Of a stretch of DNA of 64,000 bases, positions 9,095 through 34,954 are shown piece after piece (positions within the stretch are counted from its first letter, which is position 1; each line of letters starts with the position of its first letter). Source of the DNA: a bacterium (GTDB taxonomy: Bacteria > UBA8248); assembly GCA_965204535.1 (NCBI GenBank), contig OZ241996.1:1184001-1248000 (forward strand), in the 5' to 3' direction. A program made the position numbers and the translations under genes. The notes under the pieces are model-generated. The model was not told where the DNA came from, did no database searches, and saw only the letters and a list, made by a program, of their open reading frames with translations.

Positions 9095-9147
9095 TTGCGG
9101 CGAATCCTTCCTCGGGGCGCGCGAAATGTTTCAGGTGGGCGTGGGGT

Positions 9148-9714: not shown

Positions 9715-9868
9715 TTGCTCTCCTCAAGCGGGAAATGATGAAAAAGGCTATTACAGGGTTTTCGCGCGGTCAAGGAATGACCCAAAGCCTTGATTCCCTT
9801 ATGTCCGTGGGATAGCATCGCGCAGTAAATTTTCAGGCCATCATGGATACCAACAAAAGGGGAACAAC

Positions 9869-18487: not shown

Positions 18488-18548
18488 GACGCTTTCCCGC
18501 CGTTTCGGCGTAATGACGCGCACCCCGATTGTCTCATGACCAGGGCGA

Positions 18549-19283
18549 ATGACGCTGAAACCTATCGCCCCTTCAGGAATCGATGACGGATCGATGACCG
18601 ACTTGCTCCACCACCCCTGGGAGATCGCGCCCCCCGAAGCGGTTCGCCTCCAAAAGGCGCTTGAAAAACGCCTGGCCCTGCATCCGCTGTCCGCCGCGCC
18701 GAAAACGATCGCGGGCGCCGATATCTCATGCGAGTGGCGCGGGCGGTTCGGAGTAGGGGGAATGGTCGTTTTCTCCTGGCCGGACATGCGGCCCGTCGAC
18801 GAATCGTTCCATGGTGGAGATTTGCGGTTCCCCTACGTGCCGGGGCTGCTCTCTTTCCGGGAGGGGTTCTTGCTCGAAAAAGCCTATCTGGGCTTGAGGG
18901 TAAAGCCGGACCTCATCATCTTCGACGGGCAGGGCACGGCCCATCCCAGAGGACTCGGTATCGCCTCGCATTTGGGACTTCGCCTGGGCGCGCCTTCCAT
19001 CGGATGCGCCAAGAGCCGCCTGTTCGGCGACGCCGCCGAGCCGTTGGGAGAGGAAAAAGGGGATTGGCGATACCTGCTCTCACCTGATGGGCGGAAGATA
19101 GGCGCCGTCCTCAGGACGAGGCGGGGGGTGAAGCCCGTCTATATATCTCCCGGCCACCTCATCGACATCGAGGACTCGGTGCGCTGGGTGCTGGCGGCCA
19201 CTTCCCGGTTCCGTCTGCCCGAGGTGATTCGCGCGGCCCACAGGCGCGTGGGCGAGGAGCGCGTGAGGCGGAAGATGCGATAA
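18549..19283 (+). CDS. nfi: Endonuclease V
   Basis: AGAD, FPYVPGLLSFRE, DGQG.AHPR.LGIASHLG, IGCAKSRL, SPGH, LPE..R.AH; start may be 18594. Confidence 0.93.
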   Translation: MTLKPIAPSGIDDGSMTDLLHHPWEIAPPEAVRLQKALEKRLALHPLSAAPKTIAGADISCEWRGRFGVGGMVVFSWPDMRPVDESFHGGDLRFPYVPGLLSFREGFLLEKAYLGLRVKPDLIIFDGQGTAHPRGLGIASHLGLRLGAPSIGCAKSRLFGDAAEPLGEEKGDWRYLLSPDGRKIGAVLRTRRGVKPVYISPGHLIDIEDSVRWVLAATSRFRLPEVIRAAHRRVGEERVRRKMR

Positions 19284-19312
19284 AAAAGCGCCCCTTGCGA
19301 GGCGCTTCTTTT
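19283..19312. terminator. Candidate bidirectional terminator between nfi and cytochrome gene
   Basis: aaaaaagcgcc-ccttgcga-ggcgcttctttt between convergent stops. Confidence 0.65.
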
Positions 19313-19328
19313 GTTTGGAAGTCGAGGT

Positions 19329-22283
19329 CTAGCCGGGCGAAGCGTCGCTTTCGGCCTGTTCGGCCTCAGCCTCTTTTTCGGGCTTCTCGGTTCGAGGCGC
19401 TTCGTTCTTCGCGCTGGACTCAGCGGGCTTGAGGAAATTCGTCTCGATCATCAGGTAATCGCGCATCGCGCGGATTTGCCGGTACGCGTCTCCCCCGAGG
19501 AGTTCTTCGTCGATGGGCTCGCCGTGGCTCTCTATCGTCGCCTTTCCGATGGTTTTTCCGAGATCGGTAGGCGAGGAGATGGTCATCTTCTTCTCATCTA
19601 TTTCCGCCACCTTCACGAGGTGCGTGGCGCCGCCGACGCGCAGGGTGGCGAATTGCTCTTCCGGCAACTCGACTTCTTCCGTGGCTTCGAGTTCGTAGAT
19701 GAACAGGTCGTCTTCCTTCTCGCCCCGGATGCCCTTGATGATTTCAGACTGGGAGCCCGCGCCCTCGAAGAAGTTGGGCATCTTGGTTCCCGGCTGGATT
19801 TTGCCCGGGTATATCAGCCAATCGACTATCCAGTCAGGACGCAGTCGATTCTTGGAGAAAAGCAGGTTCGGCGCCGTAGGCGGCTCCTGTCCCGGCGGGG
19901 GCGGCCATTCTCCATGACAGGCCAGGCATTCGGCCATTGCAAAGAGCTTTTTGCCGGCCTGGAGGTTTTCCGCGCTCACGCTCTTGGCGTCGAAATGGAT
20001 ATAGGGATTCAGTTTCGAGTCCAGCGCGGCGAAGTAATCCACGAGCGCCGCAGCGTCTTTCTCGGGCATCTGGAAGCTGGGCATCCGCACCTTGAGCCAT
20101 GGCCGCAGCGTCACGACGTTGCGCAGGAAGCCGAAGAACCAATCGGGCTGCACCTTTCTTCCCTCGCCGTTCAGCAGGGGCGGACCGTTCGTCTTGTCCT
20201 CATAGCGCCTGAGCAGGTCGCCGCCCCAGTTCTCGATGACGTGGCAGCCGTTGCAGTTGTATTTCTCGATCATCCGGCGGCCGTTTTCGATTCGCCGGGC
20301 GCGGGTGTCGAGCACCTGGTGGACGCTGTGGGGCGCGCCGTGCGGCGTCATGGAGCGCAGCAGGGTGCGTATGGCGGAGACCTCCGGATCGGAGAATTCG
20401 AAGTTCGGCATGAGCAGCGTTTCGCGCTCGGTCTGGTAGAGTTGCGGGTTCTTGAGCTTGCCGAACGTCCACGCCTCCCAGGTGTGGGGCATGTCGACCA
20501 CGTTGCCGAAGGAGAGCTCGAAGGGTTTTTTGGCCGCGAAGCGCGTCAGGTCCGGCCCGATCTTGGAGAGCTTCTCGGTGCCGGGGATGACGTGGCAGCC
20601 GAAGCAGCCGCGCGTTGCCACGAGTTTCTTGCCGCGCTCGAACGAGGCCTCATCGCCGAGTTTCCGGGGCTTGGGCCGTTTTGACTCAGGCGTGAGGCTG
20701 ACAAGGTAGGCGGTGACCGCACTCGCTTCCTCATCCGTGAGACGAAGGCTCGGCATCTTGGTGTCGTGCCAATAGGCTTTCGGGTTCTTGAGCCAGCGGA
20801 ACAGCCAGTCGGGCTGGATCTTGGCGCCGATGTTCTGGAGCGCCGGTGCGAAATCGCGGTTGCGGTAGACGATGGGCCTGCCGTTCACGCCTTCGAGCGG
20901 GGGCCCGAGCTCCAGGTCTTTTTCGTTTCGGATGTGGCAACCCAGGCAACCGACCTCTTCGAAGATGGATTTCCCTTGCTTGATCTGCGCGGCGTCATCG
21001 AGATTCGGGAACGCGGCGGATTCCACCTTGCGCGGCCCCTGCCGCCAGACGTATGTGGCGATGTCCAGCGCTTCCTGGTCCGACAGGCTGAAATAGGGCA
21101 TGCGGGTGCGCGGGTTGTAGTCTTTCGGCCTCTTGACCCAGGAGACGAGCCAGGCGGGCGCCACCTTCTCCTGGATTCTCGAGAGGTCCGGCCCCACCTT
21201 GCGCAGGCCTTCCGTGCCCGGAAGGGTGTGGCAGCCGTTGCAGCCGAGTTCTCTGGTGAGGGAGATGCCGCGCGAGATTTGTGGCGCCTCGGGGATGTTG
21301 AATGTCTCGGTGTGGCAGCTTCTGCACTTGGTTTGCGTTTCGCTGCCATGCAGAAGAGGGTCTTCCCAGAATTGCACGTGGCCGTGGGCCGTATTGAGGC
21401 TGGTGACGGCCGTTCCCTGACCGCCGTGGCAAAGCGTGCAACCGACCTTGTTGAATTCGTGCTTCGAGAGATAAAGACGCCTGTTGGGGTGCGTGCGGAA
21501 CGGTTGGGGCGCATCCTCGAAGCCCGCCCTGTTGATGCCCAGGTGACAGGTCTGGCACCGTTCCACCTTCATCACGGGTTCGTTGAAGTTGTTGCGCTCA
21601 TATTCGCGCAGGACGAGCTGGCTGATCTCATAGGGACGGGCGGAGATGCCTTTCAGCCGCCGCTCCTGGGAGGAAATATCGCCGGCTACTTTTCGCCGCG
21701 TCGCCTGGAGCGTTTTCAGTTCTTTTTCCTTGGCCTCAATCTTTGCCTTTATCGCGTCTCTGTCGGCTTCGGCCTTCTCCGCGACGGGCGTTATCTCATC
21801 GAGGAGGGCCTTGGCCTCGTCGACTTCGGTTTGCTCGGCTTCTTTGTCATGCCCTTGCCGGATGGCTTCCTGGAGATAGAAGTAGGACTGATCGAAGAGC
21901 GCTTTTCTGAAGCCAAGCTCCTGCACTTTCTCGAAAGCGTCGAGTTCGCTCTTCGTGAGTTCTGCTTTCAGTTGCTTGAGTTCTTCGTCGCCCGCGAGTT
22001 TTTGTTCTTGCGCGGCGATTTTCTTGTCGAGGTCGGCGACCGCGGAGCCGGTGGTTTTCTTGAGTCTGGCGAGTTCCTTCTCTACCTGGGCTTTTTCATA
22101 GGCGTTGAACTGTTTCTGGTATTGTTTCCAGGGTCTGCGCGTGAACGCCTCGTCCCAGACGGTCCAGAAAGTCACCGCGACCATGAAGAGGCCCAGGATG
22201 AAAAACGGAATCGGACTGGTTTTTTCTTCCGGAGGTTTGAAGTCTCGGCCTTGCATCTTGAAAAAACGCTCCCCCACCGGCAT
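19329..22283 (-). CDS. Membrane-anchored octaheme c-type cytochrome with long coiled coil
   Basis: Eight CxxCH (CQTCH, CTLCH, CRSCH, CNGCH, CLGCH, CFGCH, CNGCH, CLACH); repeated GP.L..W..P..MP units; start may be 22256. Confidence 0.9.
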   Translation of the reverse strand: MPVGERFFKMQGRDFKPPEEKTSPIPFFILGLFMVAVTFWTVWDEAFTRRPWKQYQKQFNAYEKAQVEKELARLKKTTGSAVADLDKKIAAQEQKLAGDEELKQLKAELTKSELDAFEKVQELGFRKALFDQSYFYLQEAIRQGHDKEAEQTEVDEAKALLDEITPVAEKAEADRDAIKAKIEAKEKELKTLQATRRKVAGDISSQERRLKGISARPYEISQLVLREYERNNFNEPVMKVERCQTCHLGINRAGFEDAPQPFRTHPNRRLYLSKHEFNKVGCTLCHGGQGTAVTSLNTAHGHVQFWEDPLLHGSETQTKCRSCHTETFNIPEAPQISRGISLTRELGCNGCHTLPGTEGLRKVGPDLSRIQEKVAPAWLVSWVKRPKDYNPRTRMPYFSLSDQEALDIATYVWRQGPRKVESAAFPNLDDAAQIKQGKSIFEEVGCLGCHIRNEKDLELGPPLEGVNGRPIVYRNRDFAPALQNIGAKIQPDWLFRWLKNPKAYWHDTKMPSLRLTDEEASAVTAYLVSLTPESKRPKPRKLGDEASFERGKKLVATRGCFGCHVIPGTEKLSKIGPDLTRFAAKKPFELSFGNVVDMPHTWEAWTFGKLKNPQLYQTERETLLMPNFEFSDPEVSAIRTLLRSMTPHGAPHSVHQVLDTRARRIENGRRMIEKYNCNGCHVIENWGGDLLRRYEDKTNGPPLLNGEGRKVQPDWFFGFLRNVVTLRPWLKVRMPSFQMPEKDAAALVDYFAALDSKLNPYIHFDAKSVSAENLQAGKKLFAMAECLACHGEWPPPPGQEPPTAPNLLFSKNRLRPDWIVDWLIYPGKIQPGTKMPNFFEGAGSQSEIIKGIRGEKEDDLFIYELEATEEVELPEEQFATLRVGGATHLVKVAEIDEKKMTISSPTDLGKTIGKATIESHGEPIDEELLGGDAYRQIRAMRDYLMIETNFLKPAESSAKNEAPRTEKPEKEAEAEQAESDASPG

Positions 22284-22478
22284 TTTGAGCGGAAATTCCG
22301 GGTTTCTTGGCTAAAATCCGGCTGATTATAGGTACGGGCATGACGGGCGTCAACCGCAGAGCGGGTAGTTTTGACTTAAGATAATTCCGCCTGCATACGG
22401 GGAGAATATGCTGAAAACGCGAAGCGCCTCCCGAAAAAGACGGCGGGTGTTCATGCCCCGCATTCGCCTCGCCTGAAG

Positions 22479-25400
22479 TTATTCGTTTTGGCTTCTGATG
22501 ATGCCGGCGAGTTGGCCGATGATGGCGATGGAGATGGTCGGGTGCTCGTGAATCAGTTCGAGAAGGGGCTCTTTCTCGATACCCAGCAATGAGGTGTCCC
22601 GGCTGGCTCGCGCGCCTGCGCTTCTGCCCTCATCGCCGAAAAGCGCGATTTCCCCGAACGAGGTCGGGGGACCGAGCGTGGCCAGAATCCTCGGCGCCCC
22701 GTTCGCTTGGTTGAGGATGATTTCTATCTCCCCGTCCACGATGACGTAGAGATAATCGCAAGGGTCTCCCTGTTCGAAGAGAACCGTTCCCTCCGGTATC
22801 TGGATTTCCCTGGAAATGTGGCTCAGTATTTTCAACTCGTCCGCGCTCAACGTCTCGAACATGTTGACGCCTTTCAAGAACAGGGCTTTTTCGATGGTCG
22901 AGAGCATGAATTTCTCCTGTCCGTGTAGAATTTCGCCGACCGCGCCGTCTCGGGGGCGATCCCGGCGCGTCTGGATGCGCACCAGTCGGCTTTCGTCATT
23001 CTCCATGGTTCTCAAGAACGCCTCAAGTTCGTCTTCGTCTTTCCCGATGATTCTCGTTGCGACGACCGCCGCCTCGCGGACGTAGGGGTCGCCCTCGGAG
23101 GCCCGCGCCTTGAATTGCGCGCGCCATTCGGCGGTCGCCTCATCCGGTTCGCTTTCGAGGTGTTTGCCCGCCGCGTCGACGGCGATGGCCTGGAGCCACG
23201 CGTTTTCGGAATCCATATAAGTCGTCAGCACCTCGTCAATCGATCCTTCGGGTATCTCCCACAGTTTCCTGCCCTCGGAGACCTTGTCGGCGGTCGACCT
23301 GCCGAGCAGCAAAGGTTCGAGAGCCAGAATCAGGACTCTCGTATTGCCGGCCGAAGAGAAGTTCGAGAGCGTTTCGATGGCGATGGCTCTCGACGAGGAG
23401 CCGCCCCGTGCGAGGGATTCCGACACGGTATCCACCGTCTTCTCGTCTCCAATCACCCCCAATAGTTCCAGCAAAACCAGTTGTCTTTCCGCGACGACGT
23501 CTTCAAGCGCTTTTCTCAGCATCGTGAAGGCGGGTGCGTTTTCCCGGCGTTCGATGACGTGGAGGTGATTGATGACGCCGTAGACTTCCCGCAGGTGCTC
23601 CACGGCGAACCCGGAGAGGGAGTCCACGATTTCCTGCGCGCTCATTTCGCGAAAGCCGTTTTGGGCGCTTCTGGACAAAAGCGGAGCGAGAAACGAAAGC
23701 ATCCCGGAGCCTTCGAGGGAGAGGGTTCCTTTTCGCTTCATGTTCTTGAGCGATTCGACGGCCTCTCGTCTCACCAGAAAATCGACGTCCGAGAGAGCGG
23801 TCAGGGCGCGTTCGAAACTCTCCCGCGAGCCTTTGTTGCCCAGTTGCCGGACGCCTCTGCGCCTGATGGCCGCGCTCTCATCCGAAGTGGTCACCCGGAT
23901 GACTTCTTCCATGCTCTCCTCATCGACTCCCTGGTTCATGGCCAGAACTTCTATCGCCTCCAAGGCGGCTTCGCGGACTTTCTCCTCGTCCTGATAGAGA
24001 TAGGGAATCAATCGTCTGATGAAGCGCGGGTTCTGAAGCTCTCCCATGCACCTGAGGGCGCAGACCCTGGCCGCCGCGTCTTCTTCGTTCAGCATCCGGT
24101 GCAGGGTTTGCAGGCCGTTGGCGAGCCAGAACAGATCGTCCGAGCGGACGAGCAGCTCGACGGCACGGGCCCGGACTTCGGGGGAGTCGCTCTCCAGATT
24201 CTCGTGGACCAGTTCCGCCGTCTCCTCCGTCAGTCCGATGCTTTCCGCCGCATCCATGGCGGCGCACTGGAGGAGCGGTTCCTCGCAAGTGAGGTACCCC
24301 TCCAGCAGGGGCCGCATTTTCTCGCCCTCATCGGCTCCGGGAGCCTTGGCGAGAATTTTCAGCAACTCGGCCGCTGCCCCTCCTTTTCGCCGGGGGATTT
24401 CTTCGAGGATGATCCCGAAAATTTCGCTTCTGCCGCTTTCCGCCATCATCTGCGCCGTGAAGACGCAAAGATCATCGTCCCCCTCGCGGATGTTTTTCCT
24501 GAGTATCGCCATGCTCTCATCGTCAACCGGGCCGAACCCTTCCTGGGCGTAGCGGAACAGGCCTAAGTTTCTCTCCTCGAGCATCCGGCGCAGGGCGGCG
24601 CCGTATTCATGGCGCACGAAGAAGCCGACGGCCAGATAGGCGAAGGCGATGAACAAGGAGATGAGCGCCAATTGGCCTGCGCTCAAGGGGAAGAGGGCGA
24701 GACCGGTGGGCTTGATGATGAGCAGGGCGACGCCGCTGACGATGCTGGCCACGGCGACCACCTGGCCTGCGACGAACGCGCCGACTCTCGCGCGGATCGA
24801 GGGGGAGACGGCGTTATAGAGCAGGGCGTTGATGGCATTTCGAATCGATTCCTGGAGGTTCTTGTTGTTGAAGCGCAAGAAGACGGCGGAATAGAAGCCG
24901 GGCGAAATCGCCATGCCCGCGAGGCCGACGATGGTCGTGAGCGGGTAGAGGAGGTTCGCCGTTCCCAGGCCGAGCCGCTTGATGATGCGCGGGGTGATGA
25001 ACGTCTGGACGAGCAGGGAGAATGCGCTCCCGATGGCGGTGAAATACCCTAAGAACGAGGCGAGTTGCGCGCGGTCGGGAAAGACTTCGCGGAATACGAG
25101 GCTGTATTGGAAATCCTGAAAACTCCTGAGAATCACCACGATGAAGCTGAACAGGGCGAACGCGCAGACGTATCTGTTCGTCCGCATGAGCGCGAGATTG
25201 CCGCCTTTTGTGGCCGTCTTGGTTGTTTTGCGCTTTTTGGGGCCCGCATCGTCGATCAGGTGGTCTCTCAGCCGCCGTTCGGTGTATTGCACCACACCGA
25301 CGCTGACGACAATGGCGCCGATCCATACATAGAGCAGATTCGAGACGCTCCCCAGGACGGGGATGAGCAGTGGAATGGCGAGGCCGCCGACAATGCCGCC

Positions 25401-25886
25401 GTAGCGTCCCCCGGTCAGGATGATCGGAACCAGCCGTTTGGATTGCAGGACGTCGAGATACTGCCCGTACAGGGCGCGGAAATTGTTCGGCAGCATATTC
25501 GTGAACATGACGAACAGCGTGTGGAGAAGCGGGAATGCGATCGGCATTGCGTAGGCGCGGAAATCCGCGAAGATGAGCAGCTTGATGCCGAAAACGAGCA
25601 CGATGAAAAAGATCAGGACGGTCTTGAACATCGCCGGAATCGAGAGTTTTTCGGTCAGCGAGGAGTAGAAGGTGCTGATGAAGATGATCATCAGGGCGTT
25701 GAATATGTACATATAGGGGAGAAAACCCGGGCCGACTTCCGAGAGGAACAGGGCTTCGGATACGGTGAGCCCGATGGAGAACTGAATCCCGATCAGGAAA
25801 TAGAAGAAAAAGAACACCGAGAAGACGAGCAACTCCTCTTCCTGGATGTTGAAGACTTTTTTGAGGAGTTTCTTCATGTGGGTCAC
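22479..25886 (-). CDS. NTT/TLC (Npt1/Npt2-like) MFS membrane domain + HEAT repeats + C-terminal cNMP-binding domain
   Basis: ALFLSEVG..LPYMY, multi-TM N-half, LYNAV..IRAR; D...VR..A HEAT motifs; F.QGD..D.LY.I.DGE and FGEIAL...RSA. Confidence 0.85.
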   Translation of the reverse strand: MTHMKKLLKKVFNIQEEELLVFSVFFFFYFLIGIQFSIGLTVSEALFLSEVGPGFLPYMYIFNALMIIFISTFYSSLTEKLSIPAMFKTVLIFFIVLVFGIKLLIFADFRAYAMPIAFPLLHTLFVMFTNMLPNNFRALYGQYLDVLQSKRLVPIILTGGRYGGIVGGLAIPLLIPVLGSVSNLLYVWIGAIVVSVGVVQYTERRLRDHLIDDAGPKKRKTTKTATKGGNLALMRTNRYVCAFALFSFIVVILRSFQDFQYSLVFREVFPDRAQLASFLGYFTAIGSAFSLLVQTFITPRIIKRLGLGTANLLYPLTTIVGLAGMAISPGFYSAVFLRFNNKNLQESIRNAINALLYNAVSPSIRARVGAFVAGQVVAVASIVSGVALLIIKPTGLALFPLSAGQLALISLFIAFAYLAVGFFVRHEYGAALRRMLEERNLGLFRYAQEGFGPVDDESMAILRKNIREGDDDLCVFTAQMMAESGRSEIFGIILEEIPRRKGGAAAELLKILAKAPGADEGEKMRPLLEGYLTCEEPLLQCAAMDAAESIGLTEETAELVHENLESDSPEVRARAVELLVRSDDLFWLANGLQTLHRMLNEEDAAARVCALRCMGELQNPRFIRRLIPYLYQDEEKVREAALEAIEVLAMNQGVDEESMEEVIRVTTSDESAAIRRRGVRQLGNKGSRESFERALTALSDVDFLVRREAVESLKNMKRKGTLSLEGSGMLSFLAPLLSRSAQNGFREMSAQEIVDSLSGFAVEHLREVYGVINHLHVIERRENAPAFTMLRKALEDVVAERQLVLLELLGVIGDEKTVDTVSESLARGGSSSRAIAIETLSNFSSAGNTRVLILALEPLLLGRSTADKVSEGRKLWEIPEGSIDEVLTTYMDSENAWLQAIAVDAAGKHLESEPDEATAEWRAQFKARASEGDPYVREAAVVATRIIGKDEDELEAFLRTMENDESRLVRIQTRRDRPRDGAVGEILHGQEKFMLSTIEKALFLKGVNMFETLSADELKILSHISREIQIPEGTVLFEQGDPCDYLYVIVDGEIEIILNQANGAPRILATLGPPTSFGEIALFGDEGRSAGARASRDTSLLGIEKEPLLELIHEHPTISIAIIGQLAGIIRSQNE

Positions 25887-25973
25887 TTATCAAGCGGTGG
25901 AGAGGATACTTCGTGAGATTATCGCCTCCCGGAAGCTCCGGAGTGGAAGCGAACTTGCGCTGTTGATTCTAGC

Positions 25974-27620
25974 CTAGGCTTTTTGAGATTTCCATGAGTA
26001 GAACGACAAGGCGTCCTCCGTCCACTGCGCGCAGTTTCGGCTGAATCTATCCCATCGGCTGTTGGCGCATTGGGCGCGGACGGGGTCGGCGTTGCCCTCG
26101 GCAATGAGGCCGTTGAGGGGCGAGAGGTCGAATTCGGCTCGAACGGGCACTCTGCCGCGCTCATCGGGGCCGAGGAGAGACAAAAAGCGCGCGAACGCGT
26201 CGAATGCGCCTCGAATCTTCTCGCACAGGTGCTCCGCGCCTCCCGCATATGCGACCAGGGGCGGCACCAAAGGGGCGTAGCGGTTCAGTTCCATGCCTCC
26301 CTCCGTGCGGTTCGTGATGCTGTCCACGCCGACGACCCCGACCGAATCCTCCGAGAATTCCACCGGAAAGAGTCTGCCGTAGAGCGTTTCCACGATCATT
26401 CCCTCACGGCTGAGCCTCAGATGAACGCGGACGCTGAACAGGCCGAAATCGATCCAGTCGCATATCAGCGGCAGGTAGCGCGCGTCGAACACCTGCTCGT
26501 AGTTCTCGATGGCGCTCGCCAGGAGGCGAATCGAATCCTCACGCGTGCGGGACGCTTCGCGCAGTTCGGATTCGAGTCTGGGCGCGCAGTTTTTGAGCAT
26601 CTGCCCCAAAACGTCCGGGGAAGCGCCGCCTTCCGCCCTTCTGGTCTTGACGTAGGCTTTCGCGGTCGCCGGGCTTTCCTGGAAGCGGTGAACGAGCCAG
26701 TCCATCGCCTGGAGGTGATCGTGGTTTTCCGCGTCGAGAGACAAGGGGAGGGGAATCGCGTGGTCCGCCGCGACGCCGAGCCTGCTCAAATCCGGAAGCC
26801 CGAACCCGTTGGGGTAGACGTCCAGCCGAAAGCATCCGCGTCCCCCGCCGCCTTCCTGCGGTTTGACGAAGAAAGTCCCCGTCCCCCGTTTCCGCGATAA
26901 GGTGGAGGCCCTGTCCAGAATGGCGGCGGCGGTTTCCGCAGGTCTTCCCCCGTTCAGTTCCACCACTTCATAGTCGGCCGTCAGGCGACGCTCGGGACCG
27001 CCCGCTTCGGGGTTTTCCGTATCCGTCCCGTTTCCGTTCAGGAGTTCGTACGTGGTTTTCTTGTTGGAGAGCGGTCCGCCGGGTGCAGTGAGAGCCCCCG
27101 GCGCGACGACGATTCCCCGGGCTTCCAGGACCCTGGCGAGGGTGGCGTCGTAGAGGCTTCTCTGGGCGGTCTGGCTGATGACGAGCAACTCTTTCGGCGC
27201 TCTGGCGGCGCGGGCCAGAAGTTCCTCCCGCCGGTTCAGGACCCTGACGGGGATGGACAACCCGAGTTGCTTCAGGTGCGCGCGCATCACCCGCGCCGTT
27301 TCCATGGTGAGGGGGAGTCGGCTCGGGGAGCCGTCCAGCAAAAGGATTTCTCCCGGACGCCGAATGGGCGGCGCGTCTTCCAGAATGCGTAAGTCTGCGA
27401 AACGGGGTTCGCGCGACGCCCAGTGGTTGAGGCTTTCGATCAGCGTTTCGTTCAGATCGCCGTCAGGCGAGTCGAACTCCCGGCTCACGCGGTAAAGATC
27501 CCAGACACCGCCGCTCGCATCGGGCGTGAGATTGTAGAGAGCGGGTTCCCGCGCGATGCGGGGATGGTTTGATGGTTTGCGCGAGGTCAAGGTTTCGTTC
27601 TCGATGCCTAAAACACCCAC
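25974..27620 (-). CDS. Uncharacterised ATP-grasp-like protein
   Basis: SNK..TYELL, FFVKPQEGGGGRG, C-terminal FD...IAEGN; GTG 27620 overlaps upstream gene end (start uncertain). Confidence 0.55.
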   Translation of the reverse strand: MGVLGIENETLTSRKPSNHPRIAREPALYNLTPDASGGVWDLYRVSREFDSPDGDLNETLIESLNHWASREPRFADLRILEDAPPIRRPGEILLLDGSPSRLPLTMETARVMRAHLKQLGLSIPVRVLNRREELLARAARAPKELLVISQTAQRSLYDATLARVLEARGIVVAPGALTAPGGPLSNKKTTYELLNGNGTDTENPEAGGPERRLTADYEVVELNGGRPAETAAAILDRASTLSRKRGTGTFFVKPQEGGGGRGCFRLDVYPNGFGLPDLSRLGVAADHAIPLPLSLDAENHDHLQAMDWLVHRFQESPATAKAYVKTRRAEGGASPDVLGQMLKNCAPRLESELREASRTREDSIRLLASAIENYEQVFDARYLPLICDWIDFGLFSVRVHLRLSREGMIVETLYGRLFPVEFSEDSVGVVGVDSITNRTEGGMELNRYAPLVPPLVAYAGGAEHLCEKIRGAFDAFARFLSLLGPDERGRVPVRAEFDLSPLNGLIAEGNADPVRAQCANSRWDRFSRNCAQWTEDALSFYSWKSQKA

Positions 27621-28777
27621 TTGCGCTGACGCATGAAGTGTTTGATCACCCAGTCCGCAATGGCGCCGCCCACGGCATTGTCGGTCGCAAGGGAAGAGGG
27701 GTTCGGGGCGATGCAACTCAGGGCGCGTATCCCCGTCATCCGATACGCCTCCTCGCGCGCGTGCGCTTCGTTGGCGAGCCTTCCGGAAATGAGCATGTTT
27801 TCCTCCTCCACCCCCAGGTGGCTTCGGATCCAGTGGACGATGAGCGTTGATTCCAGCGTATCACATGCGCAGACGATCAACCCTCTGCGCGAGAGCCAGT
27901 CTTTGACCCAGGGGTCGCTCGCCACGTGAAGGCTGGCGTCCGAGGAGGGAGAATCCGCCAGTTCCGCGATGACGATTTCCGCCTTCGCGCATGCGTGGCG
28001 AAGCAGGTTTTGGGCGCATCGCCTGACCTTGTGCCTGGAGACGCCGCACGTGGAGGCGAGGCCCGCGTCGACGAAATCCCAGCCGAGTCTCGCGGAGTCG
28101 AAAAACCCGAGCGGTCTTCCGTAGTTCACCTGCATGAGGTCCCGCATCCGGCCGGTTCCCGTGAGTTTCACGTATGAAACGTGAATGCCCGAGGAGTGCA
28201 GGGCGGAGGCGAGCGAAGACGCACAGGTCGTTTTGCCCACGTCCATATCGGAGCCGGTGACCAGGATGATGGGAGCGCAGGGAACTCCCTCTTCATCCAC
28301 GGGGCAGCGGGTATCGGGAATGACGGGGAGATGAGAAAGCAGAGCGGGTTCGCCTCGATGCGCGACACCTCCTTTCACCACTATTCTCACGCACGGCGTT
28401 TCGGGGTTCGTGCGGATCCCGCAGACGCCGCCGACATTCAACAGGTCGAGCACAGTTCCGGGTGCTGCGGGAGAGTCCGGCTCATGGCCCGAAACGCTGC
28501 GATTCGCATATCGCCCGCCGATCGCAACGACCACGTTCATCTTTTCGCGCAATTTTGCTTCGCTCGTCATCCAGGCGTCTTGCGTCCCCTGGAGGACTTC
28601 GAGCGATTCCAGGCGATCGACGGGAGCGTTTCCGGGCGCTGCGACGACTTCACCCAGTGCGATTCCGTTCGAGGGAACGGGCCTGGGGTCGGGCGTGAAA
28701 TCCGCATCGAACGCATACGGGATTTCAGGCGACAGGAACAATCCTCGGGCGGTGGATGCGAAAAAGTCCAGTTTCAA
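27608..28777 (-). CDS. DUF1611-like P-loop protein
   Basis: GGRYA, LLNVGGV.G, GSDMDVGKTT, KLTGTG..RD, DFVDAGLAST, AELAD. Confidence 0.7.
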   Translation of the reverse strand: MKLDFFASTARGLFLSPEIPYAFDADFTPDPRPVPSNGIALGEVVAAPGNAPVDRLESLEVLQGTQDAWMTSEAKLREKMNVVVAIGGRYANRSVSGHEPDSPAAPGTVLDLLNVGGVCGIRTNPETPCVRIVVKGGVAHRGEPALLSHLPVIPDTRCPVDEEGVPCAPIILVTGSDMDVGKTTCASSLASALHSSGIHVSYVKLTGTGRMRDLMQVNYGRPLGFFDSARLGWDFVDAGLASTCGVSRHKVRRCAQNLLRHACAKAEIVIAELADSPSSDASLHVASDPWVKDWLSRRGLIVCACDTLESTLIVHWIRSHLGVEEENMLISGRLANEAHAREEAYRMTGIRALSCIAPNPSSLATDNAVGGAIADWVIKHFMRQRKWVF

Positions 28778-28790
28778 TTTGCACCATGTC

Positions 28791-30260
28791 CTAAGCGGGA
28801 GAAAGAGCGAGACGGCGCGTGAATGTATCTATCATTTCCCGGGCGGCGGGGGATATCTGCTCTTCTCCCTCTTCATAATAGATGGATGAGACGCCCTCGA
28901 GCTTACAGAACGCTCCCCTCGGCTCTACTATGGTGCTTTTCGCCGGGGGAGAGCAAGTGACAAGCACCTCATCCTGGTCTTGAACGTCGCTCAGGCGATA
29001 ACCCCGCCTAATGAATTCGGGCCTCCCGTTTTGGACGGTGTAGATTCCGGGTTCCAGCGAATAACCGATTCGCACTCTCGAAGGGCTCGTGTTTCGAATC
29101 AAAAGCTGAAAACCGGATAAATCCGCTCGTCCGAGTTCGGCGAGCGAATCCCGGTGCGCCTCGAGAGCGGCGCCCGGCCTCAGGAATTCGGCCATATGCC
29201 AGTAGGTGGTGGTGGGTGCGTCGCCGTGTATTTCCTCGAGTTCGGTCATCAGTTGCGTGGTTCCCAGCACGCGCGGGTTGAGTTCGAGGGCATAGGGTTC
29301 GTCCCGATGGACGATGAAATCGACGCCGTATATTCCCCGGTAGCCCGCACAGGCTATCCACTCTCCGATTTTCAGGGTGAATTCCTCGATTTTTCGCCGG
29401 CTCCTCTCGGAAACCAGCCGATACGCCGCATAGTCGCTTCCGGCATAGTCGAAGCGGTGCATGGAGCAGCCGGGAATTCCCGTGAACATCACCGAAGGGT
29501 GGGACATCCAGGGTTTGCTGTCATAAATCAACCCCGCCGTTCCCAGGGCGGGGCCGCTCAGAAACGCGCTCACGATCACCGGCGCATCGGGGCCCAGTTT
29601 TTCGATGAGTTCATCCCGTTTGTTCGCGAGCGCCTCGGATGAGTCGATGAGGTGTGTCTGATTGCCCGAGGAGCCGATTCGCTCCGAAATGATCATGACC
29701 GGCCCGAATTGATCAAGTTGTTTGGGTCCGAGTTCGCCGAGGACCGCCACGTCGCCCGGGGGAACGGCGAACCCCGCTTCGACCGCCTGGCGCCGAAACG
29801 CTATCTTGTCGTCGAATCTCGTCTTGACTTCCACCGGGTTCGCCAGGATGCGGAGCCTGCCCTCGGCTTCTTCTGCGAGTTTGCCGAGGAATTCCGTGGA
29901 GCGGTAGGGGATGACGTATCGGGGAGCATCCCCTTGCGAGAGAAATTCCCGAATTTGAGAGCCCAAAGCTCCTTCGTAGGCCTCTACGAGTGATGAATGC
30001 GTCCATACGATCCGTCTGTTCCGCCCGCGCTCCACGGCGAAATAGCGCAGGCGCCTGTCCCATTCGGGCCCGTCGAGCCCGTAGTCGCAGGCGATGAGGA
30101 AATCGAGGGGGACGATGTTTTCCACCGTGATCGAATCGACCGCGCGCAGCCCCTGAAAGCCGAACGTCGATCCGTCCGGAACGGCGGAGGTCAAGATGTC
30201 GTTAAAATCATTTTTCGTGTGAGAAGGCAAGGAGGGTGTTCCTTCACCGAGAATCATCAC
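28791..30260 (-). CDS. ATP-grasp carboxylate-amine ligase family protein
   Basis: FDDK..FR, GSSGNQT, GYRGIYGVDFIV, ELNPRVLGTT. Confidence 0.8.
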   Translation of the reverse strand: MMILGEGTPSLPSHTKNDFNDILTSAVPDGSTFGFQGLRAVDSITVENIVPLDFLIACDYGLDGPEWDRRLRYFAVERGRNRRIVWTHSSLVEAYEGALGSQIREFLSQGDAPRYVIPYRSTEFLGKLAEEAEGRLRILANPVEVKTRFDDKIAFRRQAVEAGFAVPPGDVAVLGELGPKQLDQFGPVMIISERIGSSGNQTHLIDSSEALANKRDELIEKLGPDAPVIVSAFLSGPALGTAGLIYDSKPWMSHPSVMFTGIPGCSMHRFDYAGSDYAAYRLVSERSRRKIEEFTLKIGEWIACAGYRGIYGVDFIVHRDEPYALELNPRVLGTTQLMTELEEIHGDAPTTTYWHMAEFLRPGAALEAHRDSLAELGRADLSGFQLLIRNTSPSRVRIGYSLEPGIYTVQNGRPEFIRRGYRLSDVQDQDEVLVTCSPPAKSTIVEPRGAFCKLEGVSSIYYEEGEEQISPAAREMIDTFTRRLALSPA

Positions 30261-30452
30261 AAGTGTACATGCGGCTCCGAAATCGAAAAACAGGCGATTT
30301 TAATTCGTTAGCCTCACGAATATCAAGGCAATTCGACGATTCGAGGAACGGTGATTTCACTCCTCGGAGCTTCTGCAACGTGCAGTGCGCTATGCTAGGA
30401 TACGGGGCGTCCCAACTCCCCAATATCGACACCTAGGCGCGAGAACAGGTGA

Positions 30453-31385
30453 ATGTCCGAAGAGAGAAACATGCCCGAATCGGCGTTGGATACCGATGAA
30501 TCCCCGATGATGTCGGAATCGGAGCTCAGGTGGGAGAAATTCCGCCGGAGTTTGGTGCGCGCCAAACCGGCGATGCTCGGGGGCGTTTTTCTCATCCTGC
30601 TGGTGGTCGTCTCTCTTTCCGCCCCCCTCATCGCGCCGCAAGACCCGAGCCTGGTGGACGTCAACCTGCGCCTGAAGCCTCCCGTGTGGGAGGAGGGCGG
30701 GAGCGTGAGCTACCCCCTGGGAACCGACGCGCTGGGCCGGGACATTCTGAGCCGGCTCATGTACGGGGGCCGCGTCTCCATTCTGGTGGGCTTGAGTTCG
30801 GTGGTGATTTCGGGGGTGATCGGCATCGTCCTGGGCCTCGTCTCGGGTTTTTTCGGCGGGAAAATCGACGATCTCATCAGCGGGTTTTCCGAAATCCAAC
30901 TGGCGTTTCCCTTCATTCTGCTGGCCCTCACGATCATGGCGGTCGTCGGGCCTGGGCTGCTCAACATCATCGTGGTGCTGGGGATCAGCCGGTGGGTGGC
31001 CTACGGCCGCGTCGTCAGAGGGCAGGTCATCTCGATAAGGGAGCGCGAATTCGTGGAAGCCACCCGCGCCCTGGGCTACCCCTTGTACCGCATACTGTTC
31101 ATGCAAATTCTGCCCAACACCCTCTCGCCTCTGATCGTCATCGCCACCTTCGCCGTGGCGGGAAACATCATTTCCGAATCCTCGCTGAGTTTCCTCGGGC
31201 TCGGCGTGCCGCCTTCTGTCGTCACCTGGGGGGGCATGTTGTCCGAGGGCCGTGAATATCTGAGAGGCGCGTGGTGGATGGCGACTTTTCCGGGTCTCGC
31301 CATCATGGCGACGGTATTGAGCATCAACCTCATCGGCGACTGGCTGCGGGACTACATGGACCCCCGCCTCGGCGATGATATGTAG
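30453..31385 (+). CDS. Peptide/nickel ABC transporter permease (DppC-like)
   Basis: LGTDALGRDILSRL.YGGR, EFVEA.RALG, ILPN, LSFLGLG, GDWLRD..DPR. Confidence 0.93.
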   Translation: MSEERNMPESALDTDESPMMSESELRWEKFRRSLVRAKPAMLGGVFLILLVVVSLSAPLIAPQDPSLVDVNLRLKPPVWEEGGSVSYPLGTDALGRDILSRLMYGGRVSILVGLSSVVISGVIGIVLGLVSGFFGGKIDDLISGFSEIQLAFPFILLALTIMAVVGPGLLNIIVVLGISRWVAYGRVVRGQVISIREREFVEATRALGYPLYRILFMQILPNTLSPLIVIATFAVAGNIISESSLSFLGLGVPPSVVTWGGMLSEGREYLRGAWWMATFPGLAIMATVLSINLIGDWLRDYMDPRLGDDM

Positions 31386-31406
31386 GTTTCTGAAGGGAAT
31401 TCGTGC

Positions 31407-32954
31407 ATGAAAAGGGCCTTGTTGTGCGGATGTTGTTTACTGCTCGTAGCGCTCGCCGCCTGCGGCCGCGAAGCGAAAGAGGGTCCCTTCACGGTTCTCC
31501 TCTCGGTGGAGGCCAATACGCTCGATCCCCATTTCGCGACGGCCACCATCGAGTGGAGCATATTGATGAACATGTTCGACCCGCTCATTGAGCGGCGCGG
31601 CGATATGACGCTGGGCCCCGCCCTGGCCGAACGCTGGGAGGTGGACGAGACGAAAAAGGTCTGGACGTTTCATCTTCGCAAAGGAGTCAAATTTCATAAC
31701 GGCGAGCCTTTCGATGCGGAATCCGTGCGCTACACCTTCGAGCGGATGCGGGACAGGAAGCTCAAGCCCCGCATCACGGTTTACCGGAGGATTTTCCTGG
31801 ACAGGGTGGAAAAAGTGGACTCCCACACCGTGAAGATTCATACGAAGCGCCCGGTCGCCACCCTGCCGGTGTGGATGGTGAACGCGTTCATGTTGCCGCC
31901 GAAGTACTATTCGTCGACCCCGCCCAAGGAACTGTTGAAGAAACCCGTGGGTACCGGGCCCTACAAGCTGGTGAAATGGGTCAAGGACGACCACATCGAG
32001 ATGAAGGCCAACGAGGGCTGGTGGCGGGGTGAGCCTGCGATAAAAAAAGCGGTCTGGCGACCCGTGGCCGAGGCTTCGGCCCGCATAGGGGAGCTTGAGA
32101 CGGGCGGGGCCGACGTCATCATGAACATCTCGCCCGATCAGTCGAAAACCATTCTGGCGAGAGAAGAGGGTCTCCAGCTTAAAGGTGCTCGGGGGGGACG
32201 CAGGATTTATCTGGGGATTCGCACGGATCACGGGGTGCTCGGCGATGTTCGCGTTCGCCGGGCGCTGAACCACGCGATTGATTTCGAAGCCATCGTCAGG
32301 AACGTTTTTCTGGGCCATGGCTCGCGGATGAGGAGTATCGTGAACCCTCCGAACGCCGACCCGAACATCAAGGCGTACGCCTACGATCCCCCAAAGGCGA
32401 AAGCGCTCCTCACCGAAGCCGGTCTCAAGGATACGAATGGGGACGGCGTCCTGGAAGCGAATGGAAAACCGCTTGAGGTGAAACTTGAAGTGCCTGCTTC
32501 CAGATATTTGAAAGGAAAGGAGGTGGCGGAATTTATAGCAGCCTATTTCCGCGACGTGGGCGTCTATGTGGAGGTGATCCCCCTGGAGTGGTCCGTTTTC
32601 CTCTCCAGAAGGAGAAAAAAGACGCTGGCGCCCTTGTATTTTCACGGGTTCAGTTCCGCCTTCAACGAAGAACTCGACTTGGGTGTATTGAGGCCGAACC
32701 TTTTTGCGAACCTCACCGCCTGGAGGAACCGGAAGTTTATTCAAAATTATAAGAAGTTGGGCCAGACGTTCGATCCCGCCGAGCGCAAGCGGATCAGCTA
32801 CCGAATGCAGCGCATCGTTCACGAGGAAAGCCCGTGGGTGTTTTTGTGGAACCAGTATGATTTTTTCGGCTTGAGCGCGAGGACGCAGTGGACACCGAGG
32901 CCGGATGAGAGAATCTACCTGCCCACGATTCGCTTGAAAGAGGCGAACGAATAG
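31407..32954 (+). CDS. Peptide ABC transporter substrate-binding lipoprotein (family 5)
   Basis: Lipobox LAAC, LAE.W, F.LRKGVKFHNGEPF, GTGPY, VRRALNHAID. Confidence 0.93.
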   Translation: MKRALLCGCCLLLVALAACGREAKEGPFTVLLSVEANTLDPHFATATIEWSILMNMFDPLIERRGDMTLGPALAERWEVDETKKVWTFHLRKGVKFHNGEPFDAESVRYTFERMRDRKLKPRITVYRRIFLDRVEKVDSHTVKIHTKRPVATLPVWMVNAFMLPPKYYSSTPPKELLKKPVGTGPYKLVKWVKDDHIEMKANEGWWRGEPAIKKAVWRPVAEASARIGELETGGADVIMNISPDQSKTILAREEGLQLKGARGGRRIYLGIRTDHGVLGDVRVRRALNHAIDFEAIVRNVFLGHGSRMRSIVNPPNADPNIKAYAYDPPKAKALLTEAGLKDTNGDGVLEANGKPLEVKLEVPASRYLKGKEVAEFIAAYFRDVGVYVEVIPLEWSVFLSRRRKKTLAPLYFHGFSSAFNEELDLGVLRPNLFANLTAWRNRKFIQNYKKLGQTFDPAERKRISYRMQRIVHEESPWVFLWNQYDFFGLSARTQWTPRPDERIYLPTIRLKEANE

Positions 32955-32957
32955 ACG

Positions 32958-33875
32958 ATGAGCGCCTATCTTTTCAGAAGATTTCTTCGGGCCGTCGTGG
33001 TCGTAGTCGGCGTGAGCTTCATCTCGTTCGCCGTCTTGTTCCTATCGGGCGACCCGACCGACACCATGGTCGGCGAGGACTGGACGGTTCAGGAGGTACA
33101 GAAACTCAAAAAAGACTTGGGTCTGGACAAGCCCTGGTTCGTTCAATACACGCTCTACGTGGGCAGGGCGGTGCAGGGTGATTTCGGAGAAAGCCTGCGC
33201 TACCGCCAGCCCGCGTTCGAACTCATCATGGAGCGTCTGCCGGCGACGCTGGAACTCGCTCTCGTGGCGCTGGTTCTCTCGATCATCCTGGCGTTTCCGG
33301 TAGGAGTCATCAGCGCGACGAAACGCGGCTCTCCGTATGATCACGGGGGGATGCTGTTCGCGCTCCTGGGGCAGTCCATGCCCGTTTTCTGGCTCGGCCT
33401 GATGCTGATCCTCATCTTCGGGGTGGGCCTGAGGTGGCTGCCCGTCAGCGGAAGAAGCGGCTGGGAGCATCTGGTGCTGCCCGCCATCGCGCTTTCCACC
33501 TACTCGATTGCGAGAAACGCGCGGGTGGTTCGAAGCTCCATGCTGGAGGTTTTGCGCCATGAGTACGTGAAGACCGCCCGCGCGAAGGGACTCTCCGAGT
33601 GGGTCGTCGTCAACCTGCACGTGCTCAGGAATTCCATGATTCCTGTGATCACCATCATCGGCCTGGAATTCGGGCATCTGCTGGGGGGAGCGGTGATCGT
33701 CGAGACGATATTCTCCTGGCCGGGGGTGGGGAGGCTCCTGATTCAGGCCGTCTACGCCAAGGATTTCCCTCTGGTGCAGGCTTCGGTGACCATCACCGCT
33801 CTGATTTTCGTGTCATTGAATCTCGTTGTTGATTTGATGTATTCCGTCCTCGACCCAAGGGTGAGACTCCATTGA
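32958..33875 (+). CDS. Peptide/nickel ABC transporter permease (DppB-like)
   Basis: GLDKP..QY, GDFGES, RLPATLEL, YVKTARAKGL, ETIFSWPG.G, LDPRVR. Confidence 0.93.
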   Translation: MSAYLFRRFLRAVVVVVGVSFISFAVLFLSGDPTDTMVGEDWTVQEVQKLKKDLGLDKPWFVQYTLYVGRAVQGDFGESLRYRQPAFELIMERLPATLELALVALVLSIILAFPVGVISATKRGSPYDHGGMLFALLGQSMPVFWLGLMLILIFGVGLRWLPVSGRSGWEHLVLPAIALSTYSIARNARVVRSSMLEVLRHEYVKTARAKGLSEWVVVNLHVLRNSMIPVITIIGLEFGHLLGGAVIVETIFSWPGVGRLLIQAVYAKDFPLVQASVTITALIFVSLNLVVDLMYSVLDPRVRLH

Positions 33876-34810
33876 GCCGGACCGCGTATTTCTGGACGCC
33901 CGAATCTCTCATGCACGACAACGGCCGGCATGTGGAGAACGTCGAGCGCGCCAAACGCCTGACGCCTGAGAGAATACTCCCCCAAGTCTCGTCGCTCAGA
34001 CACATGGAGATTAAGCCTCACGACGCTAAGGAGTGGGTTCTGAGGGTGCATGAGGAATCGCACCACCGCTTCGTGCGCGAGGCGTGTGACGGCGGCAGGT
34101 GTATTCTCGATGGCGGAGATACGCTGGCAGGCCCCGGTAGCTATGAGGCCGCCCTCGCCGCTGTCGATGCGGCCCTGAGCGCGGCGGATGCCGTCGTGGG
34201 TGGGGAGGCCGATAACGCCTTTTGCGCCGCGAGGCCGCCGGGACACCACGCCTTGCCCCATCAATCCATGGGTTTTTGCCTGTTCGCCACCGTCTCCATC
34301 CTGGTTCGGTATCTGCAGGAAAAACACGGCCTCCAGAGAATCGCCGTGGTGGATTGGGACGTGCATCACGGAAACGGTACCCAGCATATCTTCTGGAGCG
34401 ACCCGGACGTGTTCTTTGTCTCCTTGCACCAGCATCCCCACTATCCGGGCACGGGGCTTGCGGGCGAGACGGGAGAAGGAGCGGGCGAGGGTGCGACGCT
34501 CAACATTCCCGTCGCGGCGGGAACGCCCGAGGAGGAATACCTGGCGAGGTTTCAGAAAAACGTCATCCCCGCCATCGAGGCGCACGGGCCCGAAGCGGTC
34601 GTCGTATCGGCGGGTTTCGACGCGCACCGGGACGACCCCCTCGGGGGGCTGGTGATCACCGAAGCCGGGTTCGCCCGTCTGACCGGGTGGGTGAAGACGC
34701 TTGCCGAAAGCCATTGCGAGGGGCGTCTCGTCTGCCTGCTCGAAGGCGGGTACAACCTCGACGCCTTGGAGCGCTCTGTCGTCGCGCACTTGCGAGAACT
34801 CTCGGGGTAA
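33872..34810 (+). CDS. Histone-deacetylase-family (acetylpolyamine/AcuC-like) Zn hydrolase
   Basis: RPPGHHA, GFC, DWDVHHGNGTQ, SLHQ..YPGTG, SAGFDAH..DPL, LEGGY; TTGA overlap with permease. Confidence 0.92.
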   Translation: MSRTAYFWTPESLMHDNGRHVENVERAKRLTPERILPQVSSLRHMEIKPHDAKEWVLRVHEESHHRFVREACDGGRCILDGGDTLAGPGSYEAALAAVDAALSAADAVVGGEADNAFCAARPPGHHALPHQSMGFCLFATVSILVRYLQEKHGLQRIAVVDWDVHHGNGTQHIFWSDPDVFFVSLHQHPHYPGTGLAGETGEGAGEGATLNIPVAAGTPEEEYLARFQKNVIPAIEAHGPEAVVVSAGFDAHRDDPLGGLVITEAGFARLTGWVKTLAESHCEGRLVCLLEGGYNLDALERSVVAHLRELSG

Positions 34811-34846
34811 CGATTTGCACACCGGGTTTCACAAACAGCCCCAAAA

Positions 34847-34880
34847 TTTAGTTGACTAACTAACTAAAAAGATTTATATT
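34847..34880 (+). promoter_or_regulatory. Sigma70 promoter overlapped by palindromic operator
   Basis: TTGACT (34852)-17bp-TATATT (34875); tttagtt-N8-aactaaa inverted repeat at 34847-34868. Confidence 0.7.
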
Positions 34881-34954
34881 CCATGTAGCTTGTGGGACGG
34901 ACTTCGGCGTATTGGTTCGACGAGTTGGGTTTTCAACTTACCGGGGGAGAGGGT

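Follow-up and report, generated by a model that had tools for sequence, protein, structure and literature searches.

A seven-gene module around a conserved pair of predicted ATP-grasp ligases, with a candidate role in peptide synthesis and transport, in a bacterium of the UBA8248 lineage

We analyzed a 64,000-nt window of a bacterial genome (GTDB lineage Bacteria; UBA8248), taken from contig OZ241996.1 of assembly GCA_965204535.1 (positions 1,184,001 to 1,248,000 of the forward strand; coordinates below are positions within this window). The window contains four co-oriented, intact open reading frames (ORFs) on the minus strand, here called genes A to D. They encode a predicted ATP-grasp ligase, a P-loop protein, a second and very divergent ATP-grasp protein, and a carrier-like membrane protein fused to HEAT and cyclic nucleotide monophosphate (cNMP)-binding domains. 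A first-pass annotation made from the sequence alone had described them as an uncharacterised operon for ribosome-independent synthesis of a small, possibly N-acylated or D-amino-acid-containing peptide or polyamide, coupled to a transporter. The four-gene operon is real, but the unit inherited in this lineage comprises seven genes, and its oldest part is the ligase pair A and C.

28791..30260, minus strand: gene A, ATP-grasp ligase (predicted); likely start TTG at 30230, giving 479 aa (from homologue lengths)
27608..28777, minus strand: gene B, P-loop protein lying between BioD and DUF1611
25974..27620, minus strand: gene C, predicted ATP-grasp protein of an unnamed family; likely start TTG at 27590, giving 538 aa (from homologue lengths)
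22479..25886, minus strand: gene D, NTT (TLC)-HEAT-cNMP-binding fusion; likely start ATG at 25877 (from homologue lengths)

The layout described earlier is present, with 13 bp between A and B and 87 bp between C and D, a distance first given as about 90 bp. The reported overlap of B and C exists only if C starts at the GTG at 27620. Most C homologues are 538 aa long, which fits the TTG at 27590 and leaves a gap of 17 bp. All sequence motifs quoted previously for A, B, and C were recovered in the translations. Each gene is single-copy in the genome, and comparison with 11 same-genus loci indicated purifying selection on all four (ratio of nonsynonymous to synonymous substitution rates, dN/dS, 0.09-0.26). 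Close homologues carry the database names of Nitrospinae, Nitrospinota, and Tectomicrobia metagenome-assembled genomes. There is no Rfam match within window positions 18000-36000, and PADLOC returned only generic HEAT and cNMP matches at the locus.

Divergently oriented from gene A are three genes of an oligopeptide permease (Opp) type, and the region between A and the first of them contains candidate promoter elements for both directions.

30453..31385, plus strand: oppC-like permease (Pfam BPD_transp_1 and OppC_N)
31407..32954, plus strand: oppA-like class 5 solute-binding lipoprotein (SBP_bac_5, 1e-86)
32958..33875, plus strand: oppB-like permease (ORF, syntenic in relatives)
30297..30326, minus strand: sigma70-like promoter candidate for A-B-C-D (TTGATA-18-TAAAAT)
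30391..30396, plus strand: TATGCT, candidate -10 element for the divergent opp genes (conserved column block in a 28-row intergenic alignment)

Of 61 genomes, 33 have a match to A, and precisely these 33 also match C; one of them (G059) is from a distant group. A D orthologue occurs in 32 genomes, and B in the same 32 plus G014. The co-occurrence of the four genes elsewhere, on which the earlier proposal depended, was thus seen as a conserved and co-inherited unit. An oppA orthologue was identified in 30 of the 61 genomes, all of which also carry A to D. The two A-D carriers lacking it are G015, in which the copy is frameshifted, and G028, in which the locus runs into a contig end. The G015 locus has several frameshifts in oppA and in the flanking deacetylase gene hdac, while A, B, and C are intact; these may be sequencing indels or early decay.

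The limits of the unit are set by genomes that have lost it. Seven genomes of the same family lack A and C (G014, G024, G025, G026, G031, G032, and G036), and the corresponding sites were compared in all but G032. In G024 and G025, hdac lies directly beside the cytochrome gene that otherwise flanks D, about 200-280 bp away, so exactly oppB-oppA-oppC-A-B-C-D is missing. Another gene lies upstream of the cytochrome gene in G026 and G036. The absence in G031 proved to be an assembly gap, with the end of D at a contig edge beside the cytochrome gene, and this genome was dropped.

The same-genus genome G014 (G014:C1:2738000-2757500, positions 8285-10500) contains a decaying module with three separate deletions. 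The first spans the whole of oppA and takes most of oppC and of oppB with it, a second removes residues 72-415 of A, and a third removes C after residue 29 together with all of D. Gene B survives at full length but has a dN/dS of 0.27, compared with 0.09-0.18 in 11 other loci, and 4 of 82 invariant residues have changed in it, with the P-loop among the affected sites. The flanking hdac and cytochrome genes have values of 0.12-0.13. G014 is therefore a natural knock-out of the module in which selection on B is relaxed, and oppC-oppA-oppB belong with A-B-C-D, the seven genes being gained and lost as a block. The two empty sites and one decaying copy thus also define what would have to be cloned.

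Beyond this lineage the set contracts to two genes. A genome scan recovered 70 loci. Those that bear the labels Omnitrophota, Elusimicrobiota, Auribacterota, and others have A immediately ahead of C and lack B and D. We assembled a set of 118 loci (39 from genomes and 79 from metagenomes), which is redundant and from which the search profiles were themselves built. In this set A is beside C in 100 of the 101 loci with enough upstream DNA. Among testable loci without B and D, a MATCAP-type metallopeptidase gene is present in 56 of 68 and a CstA transporter gene in 39 of 83. The phylum of G061 provides a second view: C occurs in 8 of 201 genomes and an A orthologue in the same 8 (with 2 weaker matches elsewhere). 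MATCAP also occurs in 8 genomes of that phylum, 7 of which are A+C genomes where it adjoins the pair. Searches for B and D gave no match in G059 or in any of five A+C genomes from other phyla, all of them incomplete; in the order studied here, none of the 39 searched genomes, G000 included, has a match to MATCAP. The oldest part of the system is the A+C ligase pair, which typically follows a MATCAP metallopeptidase gene and frequently precedes a CstA transporter gene. HExxxH and EEG[LI]A are retained in 42 of the 43 MATCAP partner copies; the animal homologues of MATCAP are carboxypeptidases that act on protein tails (PMC10499314). Pocket motifs of A and C differ between opp-type and MATCAP-type loci, so the products of the two locus types may differ as well.

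Other genes recur around the pair. In the Omnitrophota-labelled loci (L053-L091 and L107-L130), a spore-photoproduct-lyase-like radical S-adenosylmethionine gene and a nitroreductase gene often precede MATCAP-A-C, CstA follows the block, and tRNA-like sequences lie on the flanks. It is unclear whether the two preceding genes are functional partners or hitch-hikers. In a third group of contigs (L135-L176; GC about 0.46), MATCAP-A-C lies downstream of a gene that resembles citrate synthase by eye, without CstA, B, or D; on several of these (for example, L144, L166, and L176) the MATCAP ORF is about 450 aa long and the synthase-like gene is missing. One further locus (L181; G160:C6, 7119-10868) has MATCAP without A+C, between genes that by eye resemble N-formylglutamate amidohydrolase and glutathione synthetase, which suggests that MATCAP pairs with several kinds of ligase.

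Gene C belongs to no Pfam family, and 0 of 63 members of its alignment match PF08443 or any other ATP-grasp Pfam model at an E value of 0.1. Profile searches likewise gave no NCBIfam match and no significant PDB sequence match, and a PF08443 search of its own genome gave no match at C. Its affiliation comes from structure. An AlphaFold model built with AF2 from the 63-row alignment has a predicted local distance difference test score (pLDDT) of 89.6; a single-sequence model with a pLDDT of 40 was set aside. With VIA-align, the model matched ArgX (Z 20.2), DcsG (19.4), LysX/ArgX (19.2), RimK (17.4), and Ddl (17.3), and nearly all of the 50 listed matches are ATP-grasp proteins. Superposition on the ArgX, DcsG, LysX, and RimK structures gave root mean square deviations of 3.0-3.5 over about 275 residues at 12-14% identity. 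Foldseek assigned the ATP-grasp fold with a probability of 1.00, its top matches being D-Ala-D-Ala ligases, and ESM Atlas features pointed toward RimK/YheCD-like clusters. The description of 25974-27620 as a divergent ATP-grasp-like protein was therefore borne out by the fold search that had been proposed as its check.

All 63 members of the C family share K177, K243, the glycine loop G247-G252, R388, N427, D488, E498, and N500, corresponding in part to the motifs FVKP241, GGGRG248, and EGN498 (numbered from the start at 27590). We take these residues to have ATP-, metal-, and substrate-binding roles by analogy with RimK and LysX, rather than from a residue-level structural alignment. C shares with RimK, LysX, ArgX, and DcsG the fold and the order of K..K, glycine loop, R, N, D, and E-x-N. 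It has about 240 residues more than these proteins and carries an extension at the N terminus and a large insert, and no LysW-like carrier or known target lies near it. A full HMMER pass over 1.84 billion representatives returned no more than 44 proteins, many of which are fragments, and none connects the family to a named one. As modelled, C is an ATP-grasp protein with a catalytic residue set that belongs to a small, isolated family. Because fold and invariant residues agree while family models do not match, C is predicted to work like a RimK/LysX-type amide ligase, yet it stands outside the RimK/LysX family. Labels of DPANN archaeon and Candidatus Portnoybacteria occur among its members (P0192, P0188/P0223, P0195, and P0202), and no relative was found in viral contigs. 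The two most distant relatives, P0195 and P0202, lack E-x-N and may be pseudo-enzymes.

Gene A was matched above the cut-off by Pfam ATP-grasp_3 (1.1e-6) and carries the motifs GVDF312 and ELNPR326. Its closest hidden Markov models (HMMs) are PRK06524, found for all 41 aligned members, and BesA and LdmS, each found for 12 of 41. All fall far below family cut-offs (57 vs 684 bits, 23 vs 750, and 11.5 vs 475, respectively). K152, D314, and R330 never vary across the 41 rows, and at least 90% of the rows keep E326 and N328. The consistent though weak matches and the D..E-x-N-P-R core place A, by prediction, in the PRK06524/BesA/LdmS-like branch of ATP-grasp ligases (L-amino-acid ligase-like). The LdmS study assigns roles to the catalytic arginine and to the metal-binding residues that follow D..E-x-N. 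Like A, the LdmS and PRK06524-type ligases are encoded with a peptidase and/or a transporter. A differs from these enzymes in its sub-threshold scores, its tight pairing with C, and replacement of the second ATP-binding lysine. The residues after the catalytic arginine read RVLGTT here, compared with RFQNST in MATCAP-type loci. A quick and unfinished tree of A served for grouping only. We considered and rejected the idea that A and C are paralogues, given an hhalign profile-comparison probability of 7%. Distant relatives of A adjoin a C45 peptidase gene and ABC (ATP-binding cassette) solute-binding and permease genes. On Roseobacter and Rhizobium plasmids (L096 and L097), PRK06524 proteins annotated as biotin carboxylase recur in a unit with a large pyridoxal phosphate enzyme, a C45 peptidase, and an ABC transporter; they look like mis-annotated peptide ligases.

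Gene B contains GSDMDVGKTT175, KLTGTG204, and DFVDAG234, as first described, and its description as a DUF1611-like P-loop protein holds for the P-loop and motifs. Membership of DUF1611 does not follow, as B scores 20.4 bits against a cut-off of 25 (PF07755; 3.8e-4), over profile positions 12-55 only. It is equally near to BioD (TIGR00347; 26.7 vs 83.3 bits, 5e-6, over the first 40 positions only), and a PDB search found BioD (4e-6) and no DUF1611 structure. B thus resembles both DgcN and BioD in a GxxxDVGKTT P-loop followed by K204 and E272, and differs from both in that the match is confined to the P-loop region. DgcN, a DUF1611 protein, N-acetylates D-glutamate with acetyl-CoA, with DgcA as its partner. 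No DgcA-like epimerase gene was identified in the module or in the loci examined, and no bio genes recur among the neighbours of B. The N-acetyl or D-amino-acid chemistry first read from DgcN is therefore unsupported; the absence of B from A+C loci of other phyla also counts against it, and a D-glutamate-type acetylation can serve as a lead only. B is predicted to be a tailoring enzyme, catalyzing an acylation or a third ATP-dependent ligation. Its distant plasmid relatives carry the DUF1611 annotation. One lies on a Bacillus plasmid (L095, 805-9128), in a small-molecule cluster that includes an ATP-grasp enzyme and a major facilitator superfamily (MFS) transporter. A gene of the isocitrate lyase/phosphoenolpyruvate mutase family and genes for a TauD enzyme and a carbamoyltransferase are also present; this is possibly a phosphonate cluster.

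For gene D, the architecture of an NTT-like domain followed by HEAT and cNMP-binding domains was upheld. Pfam identified HEAT (4.7e-24) and cNMP-binding (3.7e-21) domains. The Pfam TLC model did not match, but all 30 ESM Atlas matches of the N-terminal domain fall in TLC/MFS clusters (up to 0.97). The sole PDB match is an ADP/ATP carrier (9j3n; E 8.3e-5), and the similarity is weak and partial. The cyclic-nucleotide cassette FGE..R-S-A is kept in all 26 full-length copies of D, and the genome encodes two genes with class III cyclase domains. Candidate paralogues of D in G035, G041, and G044 were set aside as weak, single-domain carriers with no ligase neighbour recognised by eye. [quoted passage not shown] The available part of that account does not mention a genetic context such as the one found here, where co-loss links D to a module of ligases and an importer.

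The oppA product does not discriminate between ligands, as its PDB relatives among dipeptide-, glutathione/heme-, and nickel/metallophore-binding proteins score similarly, and it is about as close to nickel/metallophore-binding as to dipeptide-binding proteins. The sigma70-like elements between A and oppC stand back to back, with -35 and -10 boxes conserved across 28 intergenic regions; a promoter scan by itself is weak evidence for the element at 30297..30326 (5 sites vs 3.3 expected). Inspection of the 28-row alignment by eye revealed no conserved operator palindrome.

The reading that we judge most likely, with about an even chance of being correct, is that the module supports ribosome-independent synthesis of a short modified peptide that is exported via D and re-imported via Opp. 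A, as an L-amino-acid-ligase type enzyme, would join two amino acids via an acyl-phosphate, and C, as a RimK/LysX/DcsG type enzyme, would add a further amine to a carboxylate of the product. B may then cap or modify it, and D would release it under cAMP or cGMP control. OppCAB, with an ATPase borrowed from elsewhere, would recapture the product, which may act as a chelator bound to a metal or as a signal. In other phyla the MATCAP carboxypeptidase, often with CstA, would turn over the A+C product instead of exporting it. A peptide-like product is suggested by the recruitment of peptide-handling partners by the A+C pair in each lineage (Opp here; MATCAP and CstA elsewhere), by the peptidase and ABC transporter genes beside distant A relatives, and by the small-molecule cluster around a distant B relative. 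The general proposal of a ribosome-independent peptide or amide thus stands, without its N-acyl and D-amino-acid specifics.

Several observations weigh against this reading. In the copies of A from this lineage the second ATP-binding lysine is replaced by S, T, R, or N (the position is K in Elusimicrobia-like copies and Q in most others), so A could be weak or regulatory. The module contains no precursor-supply or racemase gene. The characterised NTTs discussed in the available part of PMC5381601 import nucleotides or other metabolites, and none exports peptides. As D and Opp are absent from loci of other phyla, export is no property of the A+C core. Finally, the co-loss evidence amounts to about three independent losses; counts among related genomes are not independent events and do not amount to a statistical test.

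The closest parallel to the arrangement is provided by metallophores. Staphylopine-type systems (the Cnt genes) use a nicotianamine synthase and an opine dehydrogenase. Staphylopine- and pseudopaline-type systems, in the accounts consulted, combine synthesis enzymes, an exporter, and a recapture transporter in one unit, as proposed here, and staphylopine-type systems and the module both have a class 5 binding protein. The enzymes are all different, and neither nicotianamine synthase nor opine dehydrogenase was found among the seven genes. More speculatively, and with considerable doubt, A and C could be the founding members of a new two-ligase peptide assembly line present in several bacterial phyla, whose product here would be an undescribed peptide, secreted and recaptured as a metallophore or signal and released by D. 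If so, this would provide the first substrate and role for the widespread orphan NTT-HEAT-cNMP family, and an example of an NTT acting as a cyclic-nucleotide-gated exporter of a non-nucleotide. A secreted and recaptured product would also represent new small-molecule chemistry in an uncultured, Nitrospinota-related lineage.

Alternatively, the ligases may act entirely within the cell. C could tag protein C-termini or extend a poly-amino-acid from single residues or A-made dipeptides, for tagging or storage, with MATCAP trimming the product in other phyla and D and Opp moving building blocks here. We consider this unlikely, although it fits the best structural matches of C, which are peptide or protein C-terminal ligases or carrier-protein ligases (ArgX, LysX, and RimK). 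It also fits the conserved motifs of MATCAP, the trimming of protein tails by its animal homologues (PMC10499314), and its position beside A+C in 7 of 8 second-phylum genomes. However, MATCAP is missing from the searched genomes of this order, no conserved target or carrier protein is present in the loci, a separate canonical RimK-family gene is encoded in the genome, and a fold match at such low identity does not fix function.

Import and salvage are distinctly unlikely to explain the module, although Opp and CstA are importers. OppCAB would take up a compound from the environment or a host, A, B, and C would make it usable or harmless by DgcN-like activation or conjugation, and D would bring in a co-substrate or dispose of a by-product. 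Peptidase and transporter genes accompany those of LdmS and PRK06524-type ligases, and B resembles DUF1611, to which the dgcN gene product belongs; dgcN is reported to be the key gene of a D-glutamate racemisation pathway (PMC12363236). Two or three ATP-consuming ligases without a hydrolase, epimerase, or oxidoreductase would nevertheless make a poor catabolic route. A DgcA-like epimerase is not part of the module, and the adjacent deacetylase lies outside the unit.

It is improbable that D is a true carrier of ATP/ADP or related nucleotides and that the ligases make an aminoacyl- or peptidyl-nucleotide from a nucleotide or cofactor. The NTT fold and cNMP domain of D would suit such a role, and some class 5 binding proteins carry nucleotide-like opines. 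The similarity of D to a solved NTT is weak and partial, however, A+C occur without its carrier domain in G059 and in all five other-phylum genomes (with the incompleteness given above), and their partner in other phyla is a peptidase.

Housekeeping cell-wall or cofactor ligation of a Ddl-, RimK-, or CofE/F-like kind is suggested by the D-Ala-D-Ala ligases at the top of the Foldseek matches for C, but is very improbable. A canonical Ddl is encoded at window positions 8000-9094 and a RimK-family protein elsewhere in the genome. The module is also cleanly dispensable in close relatives, as the empty sites show, and the pair is sparse in the second phylum (8 of 201 genomes); no known pathway, including those of cell-wall and cofactor ligation, matched the gene set.

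Least plausible is a graspetide-type cluster, in which A and C would cyclise a ribosomal precursor peptide as do the two ATP-grasp ligases of microviridin-type clusters (PMC8939145): A and C are unrelated to each other, graspetide ligases rank low among the structural matches of C (PsnB Z 13.2, AMdnB 12.2, and MdnC 11.5, vs 20.2 for ArgX), and among 1053 intergenic ORFs of 20-89 aa from 116 loci, a search that would not include a distant or trans-encoded precursor, no small ORF recurs beyond tRNA-derived or antisense frames.

Clusters that combine ATP-grasp ligases and transporters are already known. In line with the first-pass annotation, no described pathway with this gene set was found in the literature searched, nor was a description of the C family or the obligate A+C pair, although a link between MATCAP and ligases may already be on record in Iyer et al. 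(2009), whose subject is amidoligase neighbourhoods. The locus establishes a new ATP-grasp family together with an obligate ligase pair open to direct expression and screening, and it provides a sharply bounded genetic context for the uncharacterised NTT-HEAT-cNBD carriers, so that their substrate becomes testable.

Two genes flanking the module were considered as members and rejected. The deacetylase gene hdac (33872-34810) persists in G014, G024, G025, and G031, and no copy of it was found in G037 or G038, both of which carry the module. The cytochrome c gene downstream of D has its own promoter-like site and is kept in all five genomes without an A or C match. It is located on the minus strand at 19329-22283, and its product is a multiheme cytochrome c of 984 aa whose N-terminal part is long and coiled; the gene is conserved in relatives with or without the module, and the promoter-like site, at 22325-22353, is strong.

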